From the NCBI GenBank assembly GCA_026390935.1, contig JAPLEZ010000142.1:35196-99195 (forward strand): a stretch of 64,000 nucleotides of DNA. The letters run 5' to 3'. The notes under the pieces were generated by a model. The model ran no database searches, was not told the DNA's origin, and saw only the letters and a program-made list of their open reading frames with translations. Shown here piece after piece: positions 3,001 to 31,231 of the stretch. A program made the position numbers and the translations under genes. Position 1 is the stretch's first letter. Each line of letters starts with the position of its first letter. The stretch is from Bacteroidota bacterium. Its GTDB lineage: Bacteria > Bacteroidota > Bacteroidia > Flavobacteriales_C > GCA-002722245.

Positions 3001-5544
3001 TAGGGATAGTTTCTATCACTTTTCCAGCTGAATCTTTTACCACTGGACCGAGTTTAGGGTCGCAGGAAAATTGCGGGAAATCACGAACATACAATGCAAT
3101 TGGAGTTGATGAGAAGTAAGGCATATTTTGGAAGCTCACTTCTTCATAAGCATCTTTTGTTTTCACATTGTATTGAATGTCCATGAAGAATTCAATTTCA
3201 ATTTCATCAGATGACTTGAAACGGAAATTTGGAGCCAGTGCGGGAGATCCGGCATCTTTGTAAGTGTTCATGGTGTTCACGTTTACTTCAAACAGGGATG
3301 TTCCAGTGTTGGCTTGTGTAAGCATTACAGCTGCCGGAACATGAAAAGTGTAATTGGTTCCACCGCTTGTGATGATTACTTTAAAAGGGAGTGATTTATC
3401 TACTTTAAAGGTGTCGTTTGGAAAGGACATGCGCAGATAAGAATATTTTAAATCGCCAATCATCTTGTCGTCAAAAATAATTCCGTTGCATTCTTCAGAA
3501 GAAGTTAAATAGTATTTGGTGTTCATTTGAACACGGTCGCCAACAATTCCAAACTTAGTACGAATGTTATTGTCGGGATTGTTATCCGTGTTTAAATTTT
3601 TTACTGCAGTGGCAGTTAAAGCACTACCATCATCAGGCAAACTATTGTCGTTGTTGTCCACCTGCCCGTAGGTCAAACGTGTCATTTTTGCAAAGCGACC
3701 AGCACCACCAGGGAACATGCAACCAGGGCACATGATATTAGCATCACGAGTGATTTTAATTGAAGGCATTACAAGCGGATTTCCGCAAGAAGCATCTGCT
3801 ACCAAATACATTTCAACGGAATAATTCGGACGCTCTTCTCTGTTCGGATCACTGCAGTTTCCAGTTAACGAATAAGCAATATCTGCAGCGTTGATGTAAT
3901 TATATAAAATCTGACTTTTCTCATCAAAATTACTTTGCGCCAGTTTTGGATACATGGCGTACAGGTCTTTCATTTTGAATTCAAACATTTTAATTTTTTT
4001 GTAATCGTATTTCGGTGTTTCATCTGTAGGGATGTTGTAGCCAACCGGTGATCCCAAAATATTTGTAGGATTCCAGTTTTTTCCATCCGGACTTCTAAAT
4101 TGCAAGTGGGGATAATATCCTCCTGCACCGGTTCCAACATAGTAATTGAGTCCACCTTCTAATTTTAAAACAACAATTAGTCGTGCGTCGTCGGCTTGGT
4201 AGTTTACTCCGTCGGAGTAGCTTGTACCTAAAAATGCATAAGTATTGTTTACAAATAAATTGTCGATTCTGCAGTTTCCGGTTTCGTTGGATTGCAGTGT
4301 TGAAACACGCTCAACATATGTGGCGGCATTATCAACATAATCACCATAACATGCCCCGCAAATCACATGATTGAAATAGAAGGTAGTGTTGGCCACGTCG
4401 GGATTCGTGAGCGGATTGGCAGTAGTGTTTTTTGCAGTAATTTTTGCAGCTGTTCCTAGTTCTGCATCACAATCGTCTTTCCCCATCCAGCTTGTACTCC
4501 AGCCGTCGTAAGAAGCAGTTGTAAAGTTTTTTAAATCAATGGTAGGTTGACAGTTGTATACTTTAAATTCAATGTAGTACATGTCATTGCCAGTAATATT
4601 TCCCAACGGAAAATATGCTCCGCTGATGGCATCAGAAAAACATCTTGTAACAGATCTTTTAACTGCTCCTCCGTATTTTGGATGCGGTACTGCTGTGATC
4701 GCCAATGGAGATCCTGTGCTTACATATTGTTTTGTAGTTGTGTTGTAAGTTGCTTTGTAAATTTTTACTGAGCTAAGTGGCACTTCTTCGGCGCCACCAG
4801 AAGAAACGCTTAAATAAAAATCTTTTACAGTTTCACCTGACGTTGGATTGTGCATTTTTGTGAAATAACTCACCTTGCGGAAACCGCTGGAAGGAGTGGG
4901 CTTTTTAGGATTGTAAGCACAAAAATCGTGACTACTTACGGCCACGTCCATTACATCAATAAATTCGCTTTTGGCTTTAGAAATTCTTTGTACCAAACGT
5001 GTGGTGCCCGATTGCCAAGCATCTTGCATTTGAAAGCAATTGCTCCCTTTGCTGTCGCATACATTTAAATCAACTGTTGATCGGCCTTTAACAATGTCAT
5101 CAATACAATCGGTTACTTTTACTCTTCTTGTAAAAATTAATCCTTTGTTGGCGCCAACGCTAATAGGTAAATTGTTTACCACTAATTGGTAAACGGTCCC
5201 TGAAACCAGACTTCCTTTTAATGTTGCATTGCCTGTAGTTTTCCATGAAAAAGTTGTTCCAGCAGGAATAGCTCCGTTTTCATAAGTGACCACTACATCT
5301 TGTAAACTAAGGGCCGATCCGTAAGTGTCGGTGTAAGAAATCACACCGCTGAAAGAAGTGTTACCCGTGTTTCTTACGGTGAAACTTTTGGTGAGATCGG
5401 TTCCTTTAAATGCGGTTAAATCTCCCGCAATAAAATCCTGAAAATTTGGAGCTGTAACAATAAGTTTCAGCTCTGCCTGTGCAGCAGCATACAGCGCTGC
5501 CAGCCAGACCATCATGAAGGTGAGTAAAATTTTTTTTGCTTTCA
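1..5544 (-). CDS. Giant T9SS-secreted surface protein, paralog B. Partial: the C-terminus runs off the left window edge
   Basis: Reverse-complement of 5544 downward reads MKAKKILLTFMMVWLAALYAAAQAELKLIVTAPNFQDF, close to the N-terminus of the 8039..14458 product. DNA similarity to 14320..14458 was seen directly. No stop occurs before the window edge, so the ORF track omits it. I did not trace every codon for frame integrity. Confidence 0.7.
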
Positions 5545-25266: not shown

Positions 25267-25827
25267 ATGAATATTTTTCGCAAGTTAGTTTTCGTTGGTT
25301 GTTTTATTTCTTTCGGAAGTAATTTGTGTGCACAAGAAAAGTATTCTCCTTTTCATTATACTTTTTTTCAAGAAGGTGGCGCCTCTATATATTATAGTGG
25401 ATACGCACTCGGACCGTCATTAAGCTATTGGTTCCGATTTAATTTTTACGAATTCAGCGAGTTTTTATCTCTGTCGGCTTCATGTCCTGTAAGTATTGGA
25501 GGTTATTTTAGTTCCTATTCTGGTGGCTATTTTGCTTTGGACTTACCCGCTACCCTGGATTTTAATTTTGGCAACCGGGCTAATGACGAAACAGAATTTC
25601 CAGTGGGTGGATTTGCAGGTGTTGGTGCTGCTTTTAATGCTATGTATGGCATTGGAGCAAGCCGTTCATACGGACCACTTGTTCATACAGGATTTCGCAC
25701 ATCTGTTGCTGGAAGAAGTATGACTTTACGGTTTTCTTATTTGTTTGGCTTAGGCGGAATGGACGCTTCCACTCAAGTTGATGGTAATCCAAATGTGATC
25801 GGACTTGGACTTTTTTATTTAATGTAA
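25267..25827 (+). CDS. Hypothetical secreted/outer-membrane protein (Gly/aromatic-rich, small beta-barrel-like)
   Basis: Signal peptide MNIFRKLVFVGCFISFGSNLCAQE. Alternating G/Y/F pattern. Confidence 0.5.
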   Translation: MNIFRKLVFVGCFISFGSNLCAQEKYSPFHYTFFQEGGASIYYSGYALGPSLSYWFRFNFYEFSEFLSLSASCPVSIGGYFSSYSGGYFALDLPATLDFNFGNRANDETEFPVGGFAGVGAAFNAMYGIGASRSYGPLVHTGFRTSVAGRSMTLRFSYLFGLGGMDASTQVDGNPNVIGLGLFYLM

Positions 25828-25836
25828 ATCTTTACA

Positions 25837-26397
25837 GTGGAAGACAACAAAACCTTTACTAGGGTTGATTATTCAGATAAATATTTGTCCAACGAAGTTT
25901 TCGAATTGTGCACATTTATCAATTGCAATTTCTCTAATTGCAATTTTTCTAGCGCCGAATTTATTGAATGTATTTTTGAAGATTGCAATTTCAGCAATGC
26001 AAAAATGGATGGTACAGGATTGAAGGATGTAACCTTAAAAAACTGTAAAGTTTTAGGCATTGACTTTTCAAGATGCAATGATTTTTTACTCTCTTTTCAT
26101 TTTGAAAGATGCATTCTCGATTATTCAAATTTCCATAAAAAGAAAATTAGAAACACAGTGTTCAAGGAGTGTTCCGTACGTGAGGTGGATTTTTCCAATG
26201 CTGATTTATTCGGTTCGTTATTTGAAAATTGCGATTTAAGCAGAAGTATTTTTCAGCAAACAGTTTTAGAAAAAGTGGATTTCCGCACCGCAAAAAATTA
26301 CTCCATTGATTTGGAAAATAACAAGGTGAAAAAAGCTAAGTTTTCTTTGAGTGGAATTATTGGTGTGCTGGATAAATACCAGATTGTGATTGAGTAA
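25837..26397 (+). CDS. Pentapeptide-repeat protein
   Basis: Tandem A(D/N)LXX-type pentapeptides (CNFSNCNFSSAEFIECIFEDCNFSNAKMDG...). Confidence 0.8.
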   Translation: MEDNKTFTRVDYSDKYLSNEVFELCTFINCNFSNCNFSSAEFIECIFEDCNFSNAKMDGTGLKDVTLKNCKVLGIDFSRCNDFLLSFHFERCILDYSNFHKKKIRNTVFKECSVREVDFSNADLFGSLFENCDLSRSIFQQTVLEKVDFRTAKNYSIDLENNKVKKAKFSLSGIIGVLDKYQIVIE

Positions 26398-26485
26398 TTG
26401 TCTGAACCTTGATTCACTTGATGGAAGGATTAAAGGATGTGCAATCAAGATAATCTTTTAATCAAGTGAATCAAGGTTCGGACAA
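26398..26485 (+). terminator. Long hairpin immediately after the pentapeptide gene stop (about 24-bp stem, 1 mismatch, 38-nt loop)
   Basis: TTGTCTGAACCTTGATTCACTTGAT ... ATCAAGTGAATCAAGGTTCGGACAA. Confidence 0.4.
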
Positions 26486-26489
26486 TCTT

Positions 26490-26510
26490 ATTTCTTACTC
26501 ACCATATTCA
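26490..26510. repeat. 21-bp direct repeat ATTTCTTACTCACCATATTCA, copy 1. Copy 2 is at 27246..27266
   Basis: Identical 21-mers 756 bp apart. Copy 2 encodes the last codons of the Anbu gene. Confidence 0.8.
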
Positions 26511-26513
26511 TTG

Positions 26514-26789
26514 CTTCGTGAAGTTTAGCGAAGCGAACTTCGCGAAATTTCGTATCTACTTGGAAGTTTTCAACTTCCTTTTTCTGAAAGAAAAAAATTA
26601 ATGTTATTCGGGATGTCCCTCTTCGAGGAAAGAAGCTGAAAGCTTCTAAGTGCGTTCGTAAAATCACCAAGTTCGCTTCGCTAAACTTGGTGAAGCGGCG
26701 CTCAAAAATTAAAGCAATCTCATTCTTGGGTTAGAACTTCCATAAATAATTCTTTCTTAAAAAATCGGGGGATTGCTTTAATTTTTGAG
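26514..26789. repeat. Cluster of long inverted repeats: 26514..26539 with 26670..26695 (26 bp, 3 mismatches), and 26701..26719 with 26771..26789 (19 bp, perfect). Several local palindromes are also present
   Basis: Read directly from both strands. Non-coding. Confidence 0.7.
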
Positions 26790-26833
26790 TACAAAAATTT
26801 TCGCAATGACGTGCGTGTGGTTTTGTGTGAATT

Positions 26834-27247
26834 TTATTTCGGACGGTATGCGTATTTGTTAAAACCCAGCTGCCCGTCATTGTCAAATTCAATGAACCCA
26901 ATGTCACCATCATCAAAGTAGCTCCACGTTCCGTCTTCGAATTCCTGGTTTTTATTATAAATTTTGTATGAGTTGTCCTTGCTTAATTCAAGAATGCAAT
27001 CACTGCAATTTGGATAGGCGGTGAGCTCATATTTTCCCACATGTTTTTGTCCAATATCATTTTTCCAATTGTCTTTTGTTCCTATCCATATCGAATAGAG
27101 ACCTATTGAAACAATAAGAGAAGCGCCAAAAAACTTTCTCCTGTTACCCGCATATTTTATTGTTAAAAATACGAATGTGAGGCAAATTGCAATGGAAAAT
27201 AGATGTACGAGGAAAATGAAAATTCCTACAAAACCTGCGACACTCAT
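26834..27247 (-). CDS. Hypothetical small membrane protein (2 predicted TM helices plus an acidic soluble domain)
   Basis: 137 aa. Hydrophobic N-terminus (VAGFVGIFIFLVHLFSIAICLTFVFL). Start codon overlaps the stop of the Anbu gene (27244..27247). Lies inside a segment bounded by 21-bp direct repeats. Confidence 0.5.
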   Translation of the reverse strand: MSVAGFVGIFIFLVHLFSIAICLTFVFLTIKYAGNRRKFFGASLIVSIGLYSIWIGTKDNWKNDIGQKHVGKYELTAYPNCSDCILELSKDNSYKIYNKNQEFEDGTWSYFDDGDIGFIEFDNDGQLGFNKYAYRPK

Positions 27248-27963
27248 TTCTTACTCACCATATTCACCCAATCCGCCGACATTTCATGAATACCATCCTT
27301 TAAAACACTTGCCCATTGTTCGGTATAATGGCGCAAATCTTTTTCTTCAAAACGGTGCTGTTTGATGTTGAAAGAATCCTTTTCGTAAATGAATACATCA
27401 ATTGGGTAACCCACGTCGTTGGCGCAAACTTGAGTGGAGTCAAAAGACAATAATCCGGTTTTTAATGCGAATGGAATTCCAACTTCTTTGGTGATGGAGC
27501 GACTCAAAATAGGTTTGCCATAACCTGAATTTCCAATGATCATAAAGGGAGCGGATGCTCCAATTTCAATCCAATTTCCTTGCGGGTACACAAGATATAA
27601 ATGATGTTCTGTATCTCCTTCCATTTGTCCGCCAATGAGTGTATGAATATTGAAATTCAATTTGGCTTCTTCTAAATACGATTTGTCTTCTTTTGCAACG
27701 CGGCGAATTTGCTCGCTAAAAACGTTTACTACTTTAAAAATTTTGTCCATTGGTTCCGATTTCTCGGCCAGAACTTCTTTAAAATAGGTGAGTGCTTTAT
27801 CACGCACAGAGCGCAATCCCGAAGTCATTAAAAACAGAGAATTATTCCCTTCCTGATGGGTGAATAATTTTTTGCCCATGGTGGTTTCTGTTCCTGAAGT
27901 GATGCGTGTATCGGCTATTCCAACGATACCTTCTTTCAATTTTATTCCTAAGCAGTAAGTCAT
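27244..27963 (-). CDS. Anbu (ancestral beta-subunit) proteasome-like Ntn-hydrolase peptidase
   Basis: MTYCLGIKLKEGIVGIADTRITSG, with a Thr nucleophile directly after Met and a 20S beta-subunit-like fold signature. Operon context with CP-ATP-grasp, alpha-E and transglutaminase genes. Confidence 0.8.
   Translation of the reverse strand: MTYCLGIKLKEGIVGIADTRITSGTETTMGKKLFTHQEGNNSLFLMTSGLRSVRDKALTYFKEVLAEKSEPMDKIFKVVNVFSEQIRRVAKEDKSYLEEAKLNFNIHTLIGGQMEGDTEHHLYLVYPQGNWIEIGASAPFMIIGNSGYGKPILSRSITKEVGIPFALKTGLLSFDSTQVCANDVGYPIDVFIYEKDSFNIKQHRFEEKDLRHYTEQWASVLKDGIHEMSADWVNMVSKK
27246..27266. repeat. 21-bp direct repeat, copy 2 (the 3' end of the Anbu gene)
   Basis: See copy 1. Confidence 0.8.
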
Positions 27964-27964
27964 G

Positions 27965-28825
27965 TTATTGTATTTGTTGCACGTGTACCTGGTGTTCTGA
28001 GGACTGTTGATTCGCCGACGAATTTACAACTCCTGAAACAGGTAAGCAATCATCATAATCATAGCCGTGGCAAATTTTAACATAATTATGGTCACATAAA
28101 AGTTTATTTGTAGGATCTATGCCTATCCAGCCCATTTCGGGGATGTGACATTCCACCCACGCGTGCAATTGAGATGCGCCACGTATGGCTTCACTCTGGT
28201 GCAGATAGCCGCTGGTGTATCTTGCTGCTACGCCATTGTTGCGAAGTAATCCTAAAAATAGATGTGTGAAATCCTGACATACTCCTTGACGCAGTTTTAT
28301 CACCTCAGAAGCAAGTGTGGAAGTAGTGGTAACGCCAGTGATAAATTCCATGCTGCCATGCACCTGATCGCGCAAATGAATTATTTTGTCCAATAAATTT
28401 CCTTCGTTGAGCCATAAGAAGTTGGCACTTTCTTCTGGTGATAAGTAAGCTTTTGGTCGCGATTTAGTGAGATGAATGAATTTGTAATTGTCGATGATCC
28501 ACTCGTTGGATTTAAGCACGTTTATTTCTTGTCCGACAGGCAGCGATAATCGTTCAAAAGGATTTAGATCCGGCACATATATTTTAACCGAATACGCAAT
28601 GTTCAGCGTATTAAATTTATTGGTGCTTTTGTAATAAATTTCGCTTACTTCTTTTTGTCGCGCATTGCTGATCCACCAGTCGCCATCTACGTTTATAGAA
28701 AAAACCGGACTGTTAATTTGTGCGCCCAGTGCGGCATAAGGATGAATTAAAAACTTAAGGTACGCTCCCCAAACTGGAGACGCGTAGGCATTTGTTGCCG
28801 TATACTCTAATTGATATTGACGCAT
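27965..28825 (-). CDS. Transglutaminase-like cysteine protease family protein
   Basis: CQDFTHLFLGLLRNNGVAARYTSGYL...HAWVECHIPEMGWIGIDPTN shows the Cys-His-Asp transglutaminase core. Confidence 0.8.
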   Translation of the reverse strand: MRQYQLEYTATNAYASPVWGAYLKFLIHPYAALGAQINSPVFSINVDGDWWISNARQKEVSEIYYKSTNKFNTLNIAYSVKIYVPDLNPFERLSLPVGQEINVLKSNEWIIDNYKFIHLTKSRPKAYLSPEESANFLWLNEGNLLDKIIHLRDQVHGSMEFITGVTTTSTLASEVIKLRQGVCQDFTHLFLGLLRNNGVAARYTSGYLHQSEAIRGASQLHAWVECHIPEMGWIGIDPTNKLLCDHNYVKICHGYDYDDCLPVSGVVNSSANQQSSEHQVHVQQIQ

Positions 28826-28828
28826 AAA

Positions 28829-29767
28829 TTAAAAGGAAAAATATTCTTCTACCAGTTTATTGCCAATAAGATAAATATCATATTGGGTTTTCATGATAAA
28901 GGAAGGCAAATCTTCGTTGATTTCCTCAATGGTGAGGTGTTTTAATCCTGAATATTTTTTGTTGGCTAAAAATTCTGCAGAATCCTTGCTAGGAGTTTTT
29001 GCATCGCTGATGACTTGAATTTGTTCGGTCACTTTTCGCAGGCAACTGAGCACTGATCGGGGAAAGCGATCATTGAGCAGCAAAAATTCCAATGAATCAT
29101 TCATGTTGGGAGCTCTGCGGTAGTGCTTTCTGCTCATGTCGAAAGACTCCAATCCACGCAGTAATGCTGCCAATTGATGTGTTAGTAGGGATATGTTTTC
29201 TTTTTCATTTCCTTTCAAGGCTTCTATGTCGTCCCACTTGGTTTTGATGGCTCTCAAAATTTGTGCAGCGCGTTCTAAAAATATTCCCAATTTAATAATC
29301 GACCATGCTTCATTGTGCACCAATGTGCCATCCATTTGGCCCTTGATGATGGTAAGTTGTTCAATGCTGCTTTGAGTAAAGTCGAAGAGGCCGGTAGTAC
29401 GATATTTTTTTTGATCGTAGTTTAAAACGAAGTGGTAGTATTTATTGATGGACTCCCACAATTCAGTACTAATGATATCTCTGGCGCCTCTTGCATTTTC
29501 TCGGGCATAGATGATACTTGTAATAATGGAGGATGGATTTTTTTTATCAAAGGCAACGGTTTGCAAAACATTTTGTTCGTTGAATTCTTCTTTCGGCAAA
29601 GAACTTCCATTCATTTTTAAAATAGAATTTAGCACCAGCTCTTTTTTAATGAGAATGGGTGCATCCATTGCCGAAAAATAATTCACTTTAGTATAGCGCG
29701 CCGAGTGCTCTATCCGTTCGAGGTAGCGGCCCATCCAAAATAAATTATTTGCAATCCGTGATAACAT
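28829..29767 (-). CDS. Alpha-E domain protein
   Basis: N-terminus MLSRIANNLFWMGRYLERIEHSARY is the hallmark of the alpha-E family that partners with circularly permuted ATP-grasp proteins. Confidence 0.8.
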   Translation of the reverse strand: MLSRIANNLFWMGRYLERIEHSARYTKVNYFSAMDAPILIKKELVLNSILKMNGSSLPKEEFNEQNVLQTVAFDKKNPSSIITSIIYARENARGARDIISTELWESINKYYHFVLNYDQKKYRTTGLFDFTQSSIEQLTIIKGQMDGTLVHNEAWSIIKLGIFLERAAQILRAIKTKWDDIEALKGNEKENISLLTHQLAALLRGLESFDMSRKHYRRAPNMNDSLEFLLLNDRFPRSVLSCLRKVTEQIQVISDAKTPSKDSAEFLANKKYSGLKHLTIEEINEDLPSFIMKTQYDIYLIGNKLVEEYFSF

Positions 29768-29776
29768 ATCTTTGTT

Positions 29777-31231
29777 TTAAATCACCCAGGTGTCCTTTGA
29801 ACCACCACCCTGCGATGAGTTGACAATTAAATTTCCTCTTTTTAAAGCTACACGAGTCAAGCCGCCTGGCAACACGTATTCGATGTTTTTTCCCAACAAA
29901 CAAAAAGTTCGTAAATCGATGTGACGCGATTCAATGATGTTTTCTCCTTCAATAAATGTTGGATGAACCGACAATGACATGATAGGTTGCGCTATATATT
30001 TTCTGCGGTTTTGCTGTATTTGTAGTTTTACCTCATTGATTTGTTCTTTGGTTAAAGTATTTCCAATGGAAATTCCATAACCTCCAGATTCATCCACCGG
30101 CTTGATCACCAGCTTGTCAACGTTTTCCAATACATATTTTAAATCGGAGTCAATACCGCAACGATAAGTTGGAACATTTTTAATGATTTGCTCTTCACCT
30201 AAATAGTATTTAATGATTTCGGGCATATAGGCATATACGGCTTTATCGTCGGCAACGCCTGTTCCGGGAGCGTTCACTAAGGTGACGTTGCCAGCAAGAT
30301 ATGCGCTCATTAAGCCTGGAGTTCCTAAAACAGAATCGGGATTGAACAACAATGGATCCAAGAATGGATCATCAATACGACGGTAAATCACGTGCACTCT
30401 GCGAGAGCCATGAATGGTTTTCATGTACACCACATCGCTTTTTACAAATAAGTCTCTTCCTTCAACCAATTCAACGCCCATGCTTTGTGCTAAAAAGCAA
30501 TGCTCAAAGTAGGCAGAATTGTACATTCCCGGACTCAGTACTACGCAGTTGGGAGCACTGTTTCCCGGACTCACCGATTGCAACATCGTGAGCAGTTTTT
30601 CGGGATAATCGATAATAGGTTGAGGTTGACATTTACTGAATAATTTCGGGAAAGTCTTTTTCAAAGTATTGCGATTGGCCAATACATAACTTACTCCCGA
30701 AGGGCAACGCACGTTGTCTTCCAGCACATAATATTCGCCATCGCTGTGACGGATCAAATCGGTTCCTGAAATGTGGTTGTAAATGCCGCCCAGTGGATTG
30801 AATCCTTCCATTACCGACAACATATTAGCACTGGAGTAAATTAGTTCCTTTGGAACAACTCCATCTTTCAATATTTTTTTATCGTGGTATAAGTCCTTTA
30901 AAAATTCATTAATGGCGTGGTTTCTTTGCAAGATGCCCTTTTCAATTTTAGTCCATTCGTCGTGAGCAATAATGCGTGGAATAAAGTCGAAAGGAAATAT
31001 TTTTTCAGATCCCAATGGATTGTCGGAATAAACTGCAAAGGTGATTCCTTCATTAAAAAAAACAATTTTGGCTTCTTCGTTGAACTTGCAATAATCTTGG
31101 GTGGTGTATTGTGAAAATTGTTCCGATAGAGCGTCATAATGCTGTCGGACCTTCATTTCTTTAGAAACAAACTCGTCGTAAACTCCATCCTTCGGAGTGT
31201 ATGCTGAATTGAAAAGTTGTTTTTGTTCCAA
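29777..31231 (-). CDS. Circularly permuted type-2 ATP-grasp protein
   Basis: 484 aa. Operon partner of alpha-E, transglutaminase and Anbu. The architecture matches the described CP-ATP-grasp amidoligase family. Confidence 0.75.
   Translation of the reverse strand: MEQKQLFNSAYTPKDGVYDEFVSKEMKVRQHYDALSEQFSQYTTQDYCKFNEEAKIVFFNEGITFAVYSDNPLGSEKIFPFDFIPRIIAHDEWTKIEKGILQRNHAINEFLKDLYHDKKILKDGVVPKELIYSSANMLSVMEGFNPLGGIYNHISGTDLIRHSDGEYYVLEDNVRCPSGVSYVLANRNTLKKTFPKLFSKCQPQPIIDYPEKLLTMLQSVSPGNSAPNCVVLSPGMYNSAYFEHCFLAQSMGVELVEGRDLFVKSDVVYMKTIHGSRRVHVIYRRIDDPFLDPLLFNPDSVLGTPGLMSAYLAGNVTLVNAPGTGVADDKAVYAYMPEIIKYYLGEEQIIKNVPTYRCGIDSDLKYVLENVDKLVIKPVDESGGYGISIGNTLTKEQINEVKLQIQQNRRKYIAQPIMSLSVHPTFIEGENIIESRHIDLRTFCLLGKNIEYVLPGGLTRVALKRGNLIVNSSQGGGSKDTWVI

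Follow-up and report, generated by a model that had tools for sequence, protein, structure and literature searches.

The 64,000-nucleotide stretch of DNA analysed here (the window) very probably carries a standard Anbu operon together with a recent passenger gene, found in this lineage only, which stems from a family of gene cassettes and was inserted in the 3' end of the Anbu gene. What the Anbu operon does has long been an open question, to which a conserved membrane partner would have offered a valuable lead. Since the apparent partner is a one-off insertion, the fifth ORF (ORF5) should not be used for inferring Anbu biology.

Five co-oriented ORFs are listed on the minus strand, and the first four constitute a genuine and ordinary canonical Anbu operon. 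Gene 1 (29777..31231) codes for a CP-ATP-grasp protein of 484 aa, a putative peptide/amide ligase matching PF14403 (1.1e-157) and PF04174 (2.2e-140) over its full length, and is syntenic in relatives. It is followed, also on the minus strand, by the genes of an Alpha-E protein (28829..29767; 312 aa; PF04168, 5.6e-73, profile positions 1-294 of 294), a transglutaminase-like protein (27965..28825; 286 aa; PF01841 Transglut_core, 5.6e-18), the translation of which displays the Cys/His/Asp motifs GVCQDF, HAWVE and IDPTN, and the Anbu peptidase (27244..27963; 239 aa; PF00227, 4e-5), a proteasome-fold protein with an N-terminal Thr. When compared with PDB sequences using phmmer, Anbu matched 5loy, 5nyj and 5nyf at 1e-35 to 1e-31 over residues 1-225, and further matched 5lox and 5nyw, the five structures together spanning 1e-35 to 1e-26. 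Its N-terminus, MTYCLGI, aligns with TYCVGI of solved Anbu and has the Thr directly after the initiator Met. The Pfam and PDB matches thus confirm the four co-oriented hallmark genes recognised in an earlier, sequence-only reading of this DNA; the tight packing that it described also stands, with measured gaps of 9, 3 and 1 nt in place of the 3-10 nt claimed. Loci L003 and L083-L092 contain the identical four genes in identical order, and synteny is conserved in relatives, where the four genes lie between a T9SS-tail gene and gltD-gltB. The literature likewise describes the Anbu operon as four genes, without a membrane partner (PMC5666114).

With regard to ORF5 (26834..27247, minus strand), its ATG (27247-27245) overlaps the Anbu TGA (27246-27244) as ATGA at 27247-27244, as had been noted from the sequence. 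Codon usage and family conservation, analysed along with dN/dS and an AlphaFold2 model, establish that ORF5 is a real gene. It scores +0.155 bits/codon in frame versus -0.25 or lower in the other frames and is host-like in its own frame only; GC, GC3 and codon usage all match the host. Moreover, at least 12 homologues were found (44-65% identity), and a dN/dS of 0.07-0.25 in the family denotes purifying selection, so the lack of codon-usage support that the sequence-only reading had envisaged does not apply. The earlier description, a 137-aa two-TM protein whose soluble domain is acidic, agrees with the AlphaFold2 prediction (mean pLDDT 80.5), which comprises long helices at residues 3-31 and 36-67, then a six-strand beta domain, and with the pI of 4.65 of this C-terminal domain, which harbours two conserved Cys. 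The family appears to be small, unannotated and membrane-anchored, with a helical hairpin probably in an N-out/C-out arrangement, and the acidic Cys-containing beta domain is predicted to face the periplasm. Searches of Pfam, NCBIfam, PADLOC, PHROGs and PDB sequences returned no match to ORF5. Large proteins with four to seven repeats matching the beta domain (P0211, P0218 and P0219) gave no informative Pfam matches either. A viral scan with the family was negative, and a metagenome scan with the family alignment returned one locus only, because the derived peptide patterns are narrow.

No trace of ORF5 was found by tblastn in 89 other Anbu loci, even at E<=10 (0/89), and none of these loci has a small TM gene after Anbu. 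The absence of ORF5 homologues at equivalent positions, which the sequence-only reading had held to count against its own proposal, is therefore what these loci display, and the idea that the fifth gene extends the operon and links it to the membrane finds no counterpart in any of them; conservation of such a gene downstream of Anbu is equally lacking, the closest relatives having empty sites. In L083-L086, whose Anbu is 94% identical at the amino acid level and about 84% at the nucleotide level, the junction reads ...AAAATAA, then TTACTCAATCAC, and window positions 25838-26399 align immediately after Anbu. These positions correspond to the flanking marker of the empty site, a convergent gene coding for a pentapeptide-repeat protein (25837..26397, plus strand; PF13599, 9e-26), which is 86% identical in nucleotides to that of L083-L086, where its stop abuts the Anbu stop. 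In L087-L092 (83% identity for Anbu), a convergent gene starts 4 nt after Anbu. Among the Anbu loci compared, the insertion is present in one genome only, and ORF5 is, from this comparison of loci, a strain-specific insertion and not a conserved part of the Anbu system. Of note, an insert-free join in this genome would read ...GGGTGAATATGGTGAGTAAGAAATAAGATTGTCC.

The homologues of ORF5 are found, never beside Anbu, in arrays of co-oriented, small and unrelated ORFs in Bacteroidota. The spacers of these arrays hold attC sites with RYYYAAC...GTTRRRY boxes, and the start of a homologue cassette is the reverse complement of its own R'', as in the P0133 cassette, where GTTAGGCGA pairs with GCGCCTAAC. 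The attC stem of these cassettes comprises 17 pairs, 13 of which show compensatory changes. A covariance model (R1), validated by the recovery of held-out attC sites in L001, L096/97 and L100-102, was used to search for such sites, and at least 19 same-strand attC sites were detected by covariance model in 20 kb of Flavobacterium aquidurense (GCA_900107365.1; L104). Elsewhere, therefore, the ORF5 family is carried as promoterless integron gene cassettes. No integron integrase was found within 10 kb either side of P0133, the F. aquidurense homologue, and upstream the array continues to the very edge of L104 and beyond it; these arrays may thus be CALINs rather than complete integrons. Integrons have been reported to be rare in the phylum of Flavobacterium (PMC9024848), in which their presence was already recorded (PMC8618304). 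The window itself has no attC that model R1 could detect, the best hit reaching E=0.72, and a local search with filters off giving 10 bits. The upstream cassette boundary of ORF5 is replaced by the Anbu end, and no GTTRRRY boundary is present in the window. The location of the homologues in cassette arrays and the missing attC in the window mark ORF5 as cargo of the cassette type which came to lie outside an integron. An insertion by the canonical IntI-mediated pathway was discarded, given this lack of attC and the fact that the pathway makes no target duplication.

These observations also bear on whether ORF5 could be a working fifth part of the system, retained because it anchors the Anbu ligase/peptidase at the membrane or couples it to the membrane, which we consider very improbable. 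The perfect ATGA start/stop overlap and the co-orientation would fit such a role, as would an intact ORF with host-like codons in a family under purifying selection, and the weak top matches of a fold comparison include the protease inhibitor potempin E. However, none of these fold matches is significant (E>=0.08), the gene is missing from 89 of 89 other Anbu loci with the nearest relatives having empty sites, and its relatives reside in cassette arrays. In addition, a periplasmic location is predicted for the beta domain, whereas the proteins of the Anbu operon have neither signal peptides nor TM segments. As for the overlap, all members of the ORF5 family start natively at ATGAG, with a conserved N-terminus MST(A/S)G, so that the ATGA is this native start joined at a repeat boundary, which fits chance or microhomology.

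The repeat in question is a 24-nt direct repeat on the minus strand, the two copies of which are 23/24 identical and 756 nt apart. The proximal copy (27243..27266) consists of the last seven Anbu codons and the TGA, and contains the ATGAG start of ORF5, while the distal copy (26487..26510) is the ancestral Anbu 3' end with its TAA; the single difference is an A in the distal and a G in the proximal copy. Its 20-mer core never occurred twice in 100 shuffles. The distal copy still adjoins, through a hairpin (H1), the stop of the pentapeptide-repeat gene that runs towards it, the same neighbour as in the relatives with an empty site. The copies bracket ORF5 and about 320 nt of palindromic DNA, in an insert of 732 nt that encodes ORF5 only, two other ORFs of 60-61 aa having weak or no frame-specific coding signal. 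The insert ends, TGTCGCAGG... and ...CACGAAGCAA, are not inverted repeats, and neither the insert nor those neighbours in the window that were examined contain a recombinase gene. By its arrangement, the repeat is a target-site duplication of unusual length; a 24-bp duplication is atypical for known transposases. The direct repeat to which the sequence-only reading had alluded is thus real, and of its suggestion of an insertion artefact, the insertion holds and the artefact does not, the event being a real biological insertion. Two other origins were discarded: a diversity-generating retroelement, evoked by the distal A versus proximal G, as the repeat is only 24 nt long, no reverse transcriptase is present and the ancestral end of the gene is what the distal copy represents; and a Xer/dif-type (IMEX) site, as the 24-mer has no dyad symmetry.

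In the scenario that we favour, namely passenger insertion in the Anbu 3' end, a 732-nt segment comprising ORF5 and two palindromic elements, H3 and H2, would have been inserted within the last 24 nt of Anbu, and those 24 nt duplicated. The upstream copy would keep Anbu at full length, now ending with TGA, and the ATG that ORF5 brought with it would fall on that stop; the downstream copy would be the orphaned original end with its TAA. ORF5 would then depend on read-through from the Anbu operon for its transcription and on termination-reinitiation coupling for its translation. This mode of expression is the most likely one in view of the ATGA geometry and, for the read-through, because ORF5 has neither attC nor a promoter of its own: no TAnnTTTG box was found upstream of it on the gene strand. 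A sigma-70 promoter/terminator scan, which is not informative for Bacteroidota, gave terminator-like hairpins on the plus strand only.

The palindromic DNA consists of several elements. H3 (26695..26812) is a long hairpin with perfect 19-nt arms (26701-26719 / 26771-26789) and a DNA fold z of -4.0. A 37-nt part of it recurs, according to blastn, downstream of Anbu in L003; some of the spacer may therefore be older than ORF5, and what was inserted may differ from the 732 nt that separate the repeats. H2 (26513..26696), a compound palindrome with 68-nt arms that are 76% complementary, abuts the distal repeat and holds two inverted copies of AAGTTTAGCGAAGCGAACTT. H1 (26397..26486) is an 88-nt near-perfect hairpin (DNA fold of -24.4 kcal/mol, z = -8.7) inserted precisely between two stop codons, the ancestral one of Anbu and that of the convergent gene, and is absent in L083-L086. 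Furthermore, a 17-nt inverted repeat (15/17) brackets ORF5 and joins codons 5-10 (GGTTTTGT...; left arm 27219-27235) to a box after the stop (...ACAAAACC; right arm 26819..26835), the left arm lying inside the ORF. The right arm is followed by a possible R''-like remnant, CACAAAAC-CACACGC, and the pair was matched in 0/60 dinucleotide shuffles. Rfam gave, for 26200-27300, sub-threshold miRNA-hairpin matches only, of the generic long-hairpin kind. H1, H2 and H3 were rejected as multi-copy MITEs, since neither the 64-kb window nor about 1 Mb of fetched loci, nor the viral contigs and plasmids, yielded further copies.

The same features could be read as the remnant of a tyrosine- or serine-recombinase integrative element at the Anbu 3' end, in which the 756-nt unit would be flanked by attL and attR with a 24-nt core and most of a larger element, its integrase included, would later have been deleted. 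Such elements typically leave direct repeats that rebuild the target gene at its 3' end, a single A/G difference would fit attP and attB cores one base apart, and a large palindrome, H2, abuts the distal copy. Nevertheless, this origin is unlikely: neither the insert nor its neighbours contain a recombinase gene, the native ATGAG of ORF5 lies inside the supposed core, and H1, H2 and H3 have no other copy in the fetched loci, viral contigs or plasmids. In addition, the 24-nt sequence is not conserved even in relatives at 84% nucleotide identity, which makes it a poor att target.

A MAG source, in which repeats and palindromes can confuse assemblers, raises the further question of whether the fifth ORF is spurious or, like its junction, a chimera of the assembly. 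Over 1102 nt that span Anbu and ORF5 (window positions 27885-26784), an independent assembly from Logan (SRR20698652) matches with 100% identity, so that the step from Anbu to ORF5 did not arise as an error of one assembly. The Logan contig stops at a break within H3, and for the distal junction there is one assembly only. The one-base difference between the repeat copies, the host-like GC, GC3 and codon usage, and the dozen or more homologues under purifying selection also argue against a chimera or spurious ORF, which is extremely unlikely.

We infer that the passenger acts independently of Anbu. Its homologues have CdiI, SUKH-4, HepT and GNAT as cassette neighbours and, by guilt by association, our best guess, made with low confidence, is that ORF5 may be an accessory protective or immunity-like protein of the envelope. 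There is a very slim chance that this cassette-born, periplasm-facing protein has been co-opted and acts together with the cytoplasmic Anbu system, perhaps holding it at the membrane or passing on a signal from the envelope; if true, this would give a first handle on what Anbu does. As a natural example, the locus shows cleanly how a promoterless gene of a cassette family probably gains expression at the end of a housekeeping-type operon, the host gene Anbu being preserved by the target duplication. It could conceivably record a new way, independent of attC, of domesticating cassette genes into chromosomal operons, the 24-bp duplication preserving the host gene. The analysis also draws attention to a small, wholly unannotated family of membrane proteins and to large attC arrays in Flavobacterium.

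When compared with known systems, H1, H2 and H3 resemble MITE/REP-like elements as long stable hairpins in an intergenic hot spot between convergent genes, but differ from them in having no extra copies in the 64-kb window and about 1 Mb of related loci, and the 732-nt insert is devoid of terminal inverted repeats. The NBU-type elements of Bacteroides exemplify integrative elements whose insertion at the 3' end of a gene leaves that gene restored. As with these, the insert lies between direct repeats, and the target has its 3' end and stop codon rebuilt; unlike them, the insert measures only 732 nt, carries no recombinase and has a repeat that is not a conserved target. With respect to integron cassettes (sedentary chromosomal integrons/CALINs), the homologues of ORF5 conform in being short and promoterless, each followed by a structured attC with R''/R' boxes and with a start complementary to R'', in long same-strand arrays. 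The window departs from them in lacking attC, array, integrase and GTTRRRY boundary and in its 24-nt target duplication, which IntI-mediated recombination does not make, and retains as putative remnants only the R''-like box after the stop and the inverted repeat bracketing ORF5. As regards the Anbu operon, which is known from the work of Valas and Bourne in 2008, Iyer et al. in 2009 and Fuchs et al. in 2017 (PMC5666114), the window has the order ATP-grasp, Alpha-E, TGase, Anbu, whereas many Cytophagales loci have a TGase-like gene after Anbu, and the window instance alone has an inserted fifth gene. It is alike in having all four hallmark families co-oriented and tightly packed, with synteny conserved in relatives, and an Anbu that aligns end to end with the solved structures, the N-terminal Thr included.

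The operon on the minus strand is a canonical, ordinary Anbu operon, and the sequence-only reading of five co-oriented ORFs in this region was borne out by ORF listing. Pfam recognised three of the four hallmark genes, namely, those for the CP-ATP-grasp (29777-31231; CP_ATPgrasp_2/1, 1e-157), Alpha-E (28829-29767; Alpha-E, 6e-73) and transglutaminase-like (27965-28825; Transglut_core, 6e-18) proteins. The fourth, Anbu (27244-27963), matches solved Anbu structures (5loy, 5nyj, 5nyf, 5lox and 5nyw; 1e-35 to 1e-26) along its whole length, including the Thr following the initiator Met. Successive ORFs of the operon are separated by 9, 3 and 1 nt, and the fifth, ORF5 (26834-27247, 137 aa), does have a start codon that overlaps the Anbu stop as had been proposed, the Anbu TGA and ORF5 ATG forming ATGA. 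The NCBI Bacteroidota MAG entries for Anbu and ORF5 are MCX6182752.1 and NT150_12575, respectively. An independently assembled Logan contig (SRR20698652) is 100% identical across 27885-26784, and the Anbu-ORF5 junction is thus independent of any single assembly.

ORF5 nevertheless does not belong to the Anbu system. The comparison covered 80 Anbu loci taken from species-representative genomes and 10 from the closest protein relatives; ORF5 gave no tblastn match in any of them even at E<=10, and none has a small membrane ORF after Anbu. The check for conservation of such a gene downstream of Anbu was therefore negative, and its reading as an operon extension did not hold, since it is strain-specific, with an empty site in the closest relatives. 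As described in the literature, the operon has four genes, none of them for a membrane partner (PMC5666114). In loci L083-L086 (Anbu 94% identical at the amino acid level, about 84% at the nucleotide level), the empty site is explicit, ...GGTGGGAGAAAAAAAATAA running directly into TTACTCAATCAC, and the Anbu stop adjoins that of a convergent pentapeptide-repeat gene aligning to 25838-26399; the window thus holds about 846 extra nucleotides (26400-27245). In the 83%-identity group L087-L092 (22 contigs), a convergent gene begins 4 nt past Anbu. L003 (84% nucleotide identity) has non-coding DNA 3' of Anbu and lacks ORF5. The pentapeptide-repeat gene itself (25837-26397) is missing from L087-L092, where a homologue of 25267-25827 directly follows Anbu, which marks the Anbu/gltD interval as a variable hot spot within the clade. 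Many Cytophagales carry, 3' of Anbu, a transglutaminase-like gene of about 275 aa. In most of the Cytophagales, Balneolales and other loci (L004-L082), the position after Anbu is taken by a co-oriented gene of 270-300 aa, often with start/stop overlap, whose product begins with the transglutaminase-like pattern MKLKI.H.T.Y.Y. Operon gene order therefore differs between lineages, the transglutaminase-like gene preceding Anbu in the window.

ORF5 is a genuine gene, as homologues, shared family features, dN/dS and codon score all agree. Single-sequence search returned two homologues and profile search about a dozen (44-65% identity); an HMM search run exhaustively over 1.84 billion representatives yielded no more than 88 clusters at E<=1e-3, almost all 130-150 aa long. 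Members share the N-terminus MST(A/S)G(F/L)G and two hydrophobic helices, followed by a C-terminal domain in which W-x-YFDDGD, GQLG and Cys residues are invariant, and dN/dS is 0.07-0.25 wherever synonymous sites are unsaturated. The concern that codon usage might not support the ORF was unfounded: with the host codon table ORF5 scores +0.155 bits/codon when read in frame, against -0.25 or lower for each of the five alternative frames, and its GC3 equals that of Anbu. The AlphaFold2 model is confident (pLDDT 80.5), with helices at 3-31 and 36-67 and then a six-strand beta domain. The inter-helix loop KYAGNRRK is basic, the C-terminal domain has a pI of 4.65, and by the positive-inside rule the beta domain would face the periplasm. 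No annotated family was matched in Pfam, NCBIfam, PADLOC, PHROGs or PDB sequences, and Foldseek gave no significant match, only a non-significant likeness to small lipoprotein beta-barrels. One homologue (L002, 91-342), convergent with a RelA/SpoT-like C-terminal (ACT-like) ORF, lacks both helices and consists of the beta domain only (83 aa, TTG start); it is either a truncated pseudogene or a soluble variant. Three large proteins, P0211, P0218 (about 734 aa) and P0219 (353 aa), for which Pfam gave nothing informative, match the profile of the beta domain in 4-7 separate stretches; this hints at a short beta-hairpin repeat as the building unit of the domain, one that also occurs in tandem arrays.

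Outside this locus, the ORF5 family is integron-borne. On larger contigs, homologues belong to long arrays in which small, mutually unrelated ORFs point the same way, 150-250 nt apart; CdiI, SUKH-4, GNAT, HepT-like and methyltransferase genes are among them, and the spacers carry a repeat beginning RYYYAAC and ending GTTRRRY. The variable bases at each cassette start are the reverse complement of its own R'', one of the conserved boxes of attC sites (GTTATGCCC/GGGCATAAC, GTTGTGTGC/GCACACAAC, GTTAGGCGA/GCGCCTAAC for the homologue P0133, and GTTGTGC/GCACAAC in L001), as expected for circular cassettes opened between G and TT. In an alignment of 15 attC sites, the stem comprises 17 pairs, 13 of which show compensatory changes. 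With L093 and L099 as its basis, a covariance model detects the sites withheld from it in L001, L096/97 and L100-102; in Flavobacterium aquidurense it picks up 19 sites within 20 kb, all on the same strand. In the 64-kb window it finds no site (best E = 0.72, 10 bits locally with filters off), and ORF5 is therefore cassette-type cargo, now outside any integron. The F. aquidurense locus (L104; FNPS01000002.1, 436200-456610) comprises at least 21 small ORFs, all on one strand; its attC sites are about 135 nt each and highly similar. No integrase was seen within 10 kb and the array extends beyond the upstream end; it would count as a large sedentary integron or a CALIN, an attC array without integrase. 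In two independent arrays (L001, 404-739; L099, about 3760-4100), the cassette of the homologue also holds a small multi-TM ORF (about 110 aa) upstream of it, the two upstream ORFs not looking homologous by eye; in L099 a degenerate half-attC separates the homologue from its upstream ORF, suggesting a fusion of two cassettes. Given the membrane-anchored, acidic, putatively periplasmic domain and the company of CdiI, SUKH-4 and HepT cassettes, our best guess for ORF5, of low confidence, is an accessory protein of the envelope with a protective or immunity-type role.

ORF5 was inserted in this lineage with duplication of a 24-nt target, which kept Anbu intact. The direct repeat (27243-27266 and 26487-26510; 23/24 identical, spacing 756 nt) spans the last seven Anbu codons (NMVSKK and stop), and in none of 100 shuffles did its 20-mer core occur twice. 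The distal copy, ending in TAA, is the ancestral Anbu end still in place, as its contiguity with ...TTACTCAATCAC is kept through the hairpin H1. The proximal copy ends in TGA and contains ATGAG, the native ORF5 start, since every family member begins ATGAG(Y). Between the copies lie ORF5 and the palindromic elements H3 and H2. H1 (26397-26486), an 88-nt near-perfect hairpin with 36-nt arms (-24.4 kcal/mol, z = -8.7), sits exactly between the ancestral Anbu stop and that of the convergent pentapeptide gene, a junction without H1 in L083-L086; it resembles a MITE/REP-type insertion or a bidirectional terminator, and no further copy was found. H2 (26513-26696) is a compound palindrome with 68-nt arms, each carrying AAGTT-TAGCGAAGCGA-AACTT with the motif GCGAAGC, known as a very stable DNA mini-hairpin; two of its parts score terminator-like on the plus strand, for the convergent gene, and searches found no homologue anywhere. 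H3 has 19-nt perfect arms, and part of it recurs 3' of Anbu in L003: a 37-nt segment (26773-26809) is 92% identical, in inverted orientation, to L003 6833-6867, far above expectation for intergenic DNA in an 84%-identical relative. This sharing suggests a conserved or mobile hairpin element tied to this intergenic hot spot.

IntI recombination causes no target duplication, and the insert showed no terminal inverted repeats, recombinase or other copies. This leaves either a staggered break or a template switch, with A-rich microhomology (AAAT/AG) as its guide, or an integrative element, since decayed, with the 24-mer as att core; selection to keep the C-terminus of Anbu intact would favour recovering exactly such a duplication-bearing event. 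The Anbu 3' end at 26487-26510 (AATGAATATG...AAGAAATAA) looks like the 3' terminus conserved among ORF5-family genes (AATGAATATGAATAC...AAGAAATAA), probably a coincidence of A-rich, Lys-rich termini, although it could have served as microhomology for recombination. As cassette genes are typically promoterless, Anbu and ORF5 are not separated by any gap, and no Bacteroidota -7 box was found upstream of ORF5 on the gene strand, ORF5 is most probably transcribed together with the Anbu operon and translated by ATGA coupling.

The ORF5 "extension" is a strain-specific hitchhiker and therefore offers no insight into Anbu function. The locus neatly exemplifies the domestication of a cassette-family gene at a chromosomal operon end via an unusual 24-bp duplication; the unannotated protein family and the large attC arrays in Flavobacterium are also of interest. 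As to integron cassettes, the ORF5 stop is followed by an R''-like box, CACAAAAC-CACACGC, and a 17-nt inverted repeat (15/17; none in 60 shuffles) brackets the gene, from codon 5 (27219-27235) to just past the stop (26819-26835); it recalls R'/R'' complementarity, but its left arm falls within coding sequence. Integrons are said to be rare in Bacteroidetes (PMC9024848), although Bacteroidota carrying them are already known (PMC8618304); for a phylum with this reputation, the L104 array, if a sedentary integron or CALIN, would be a large one.
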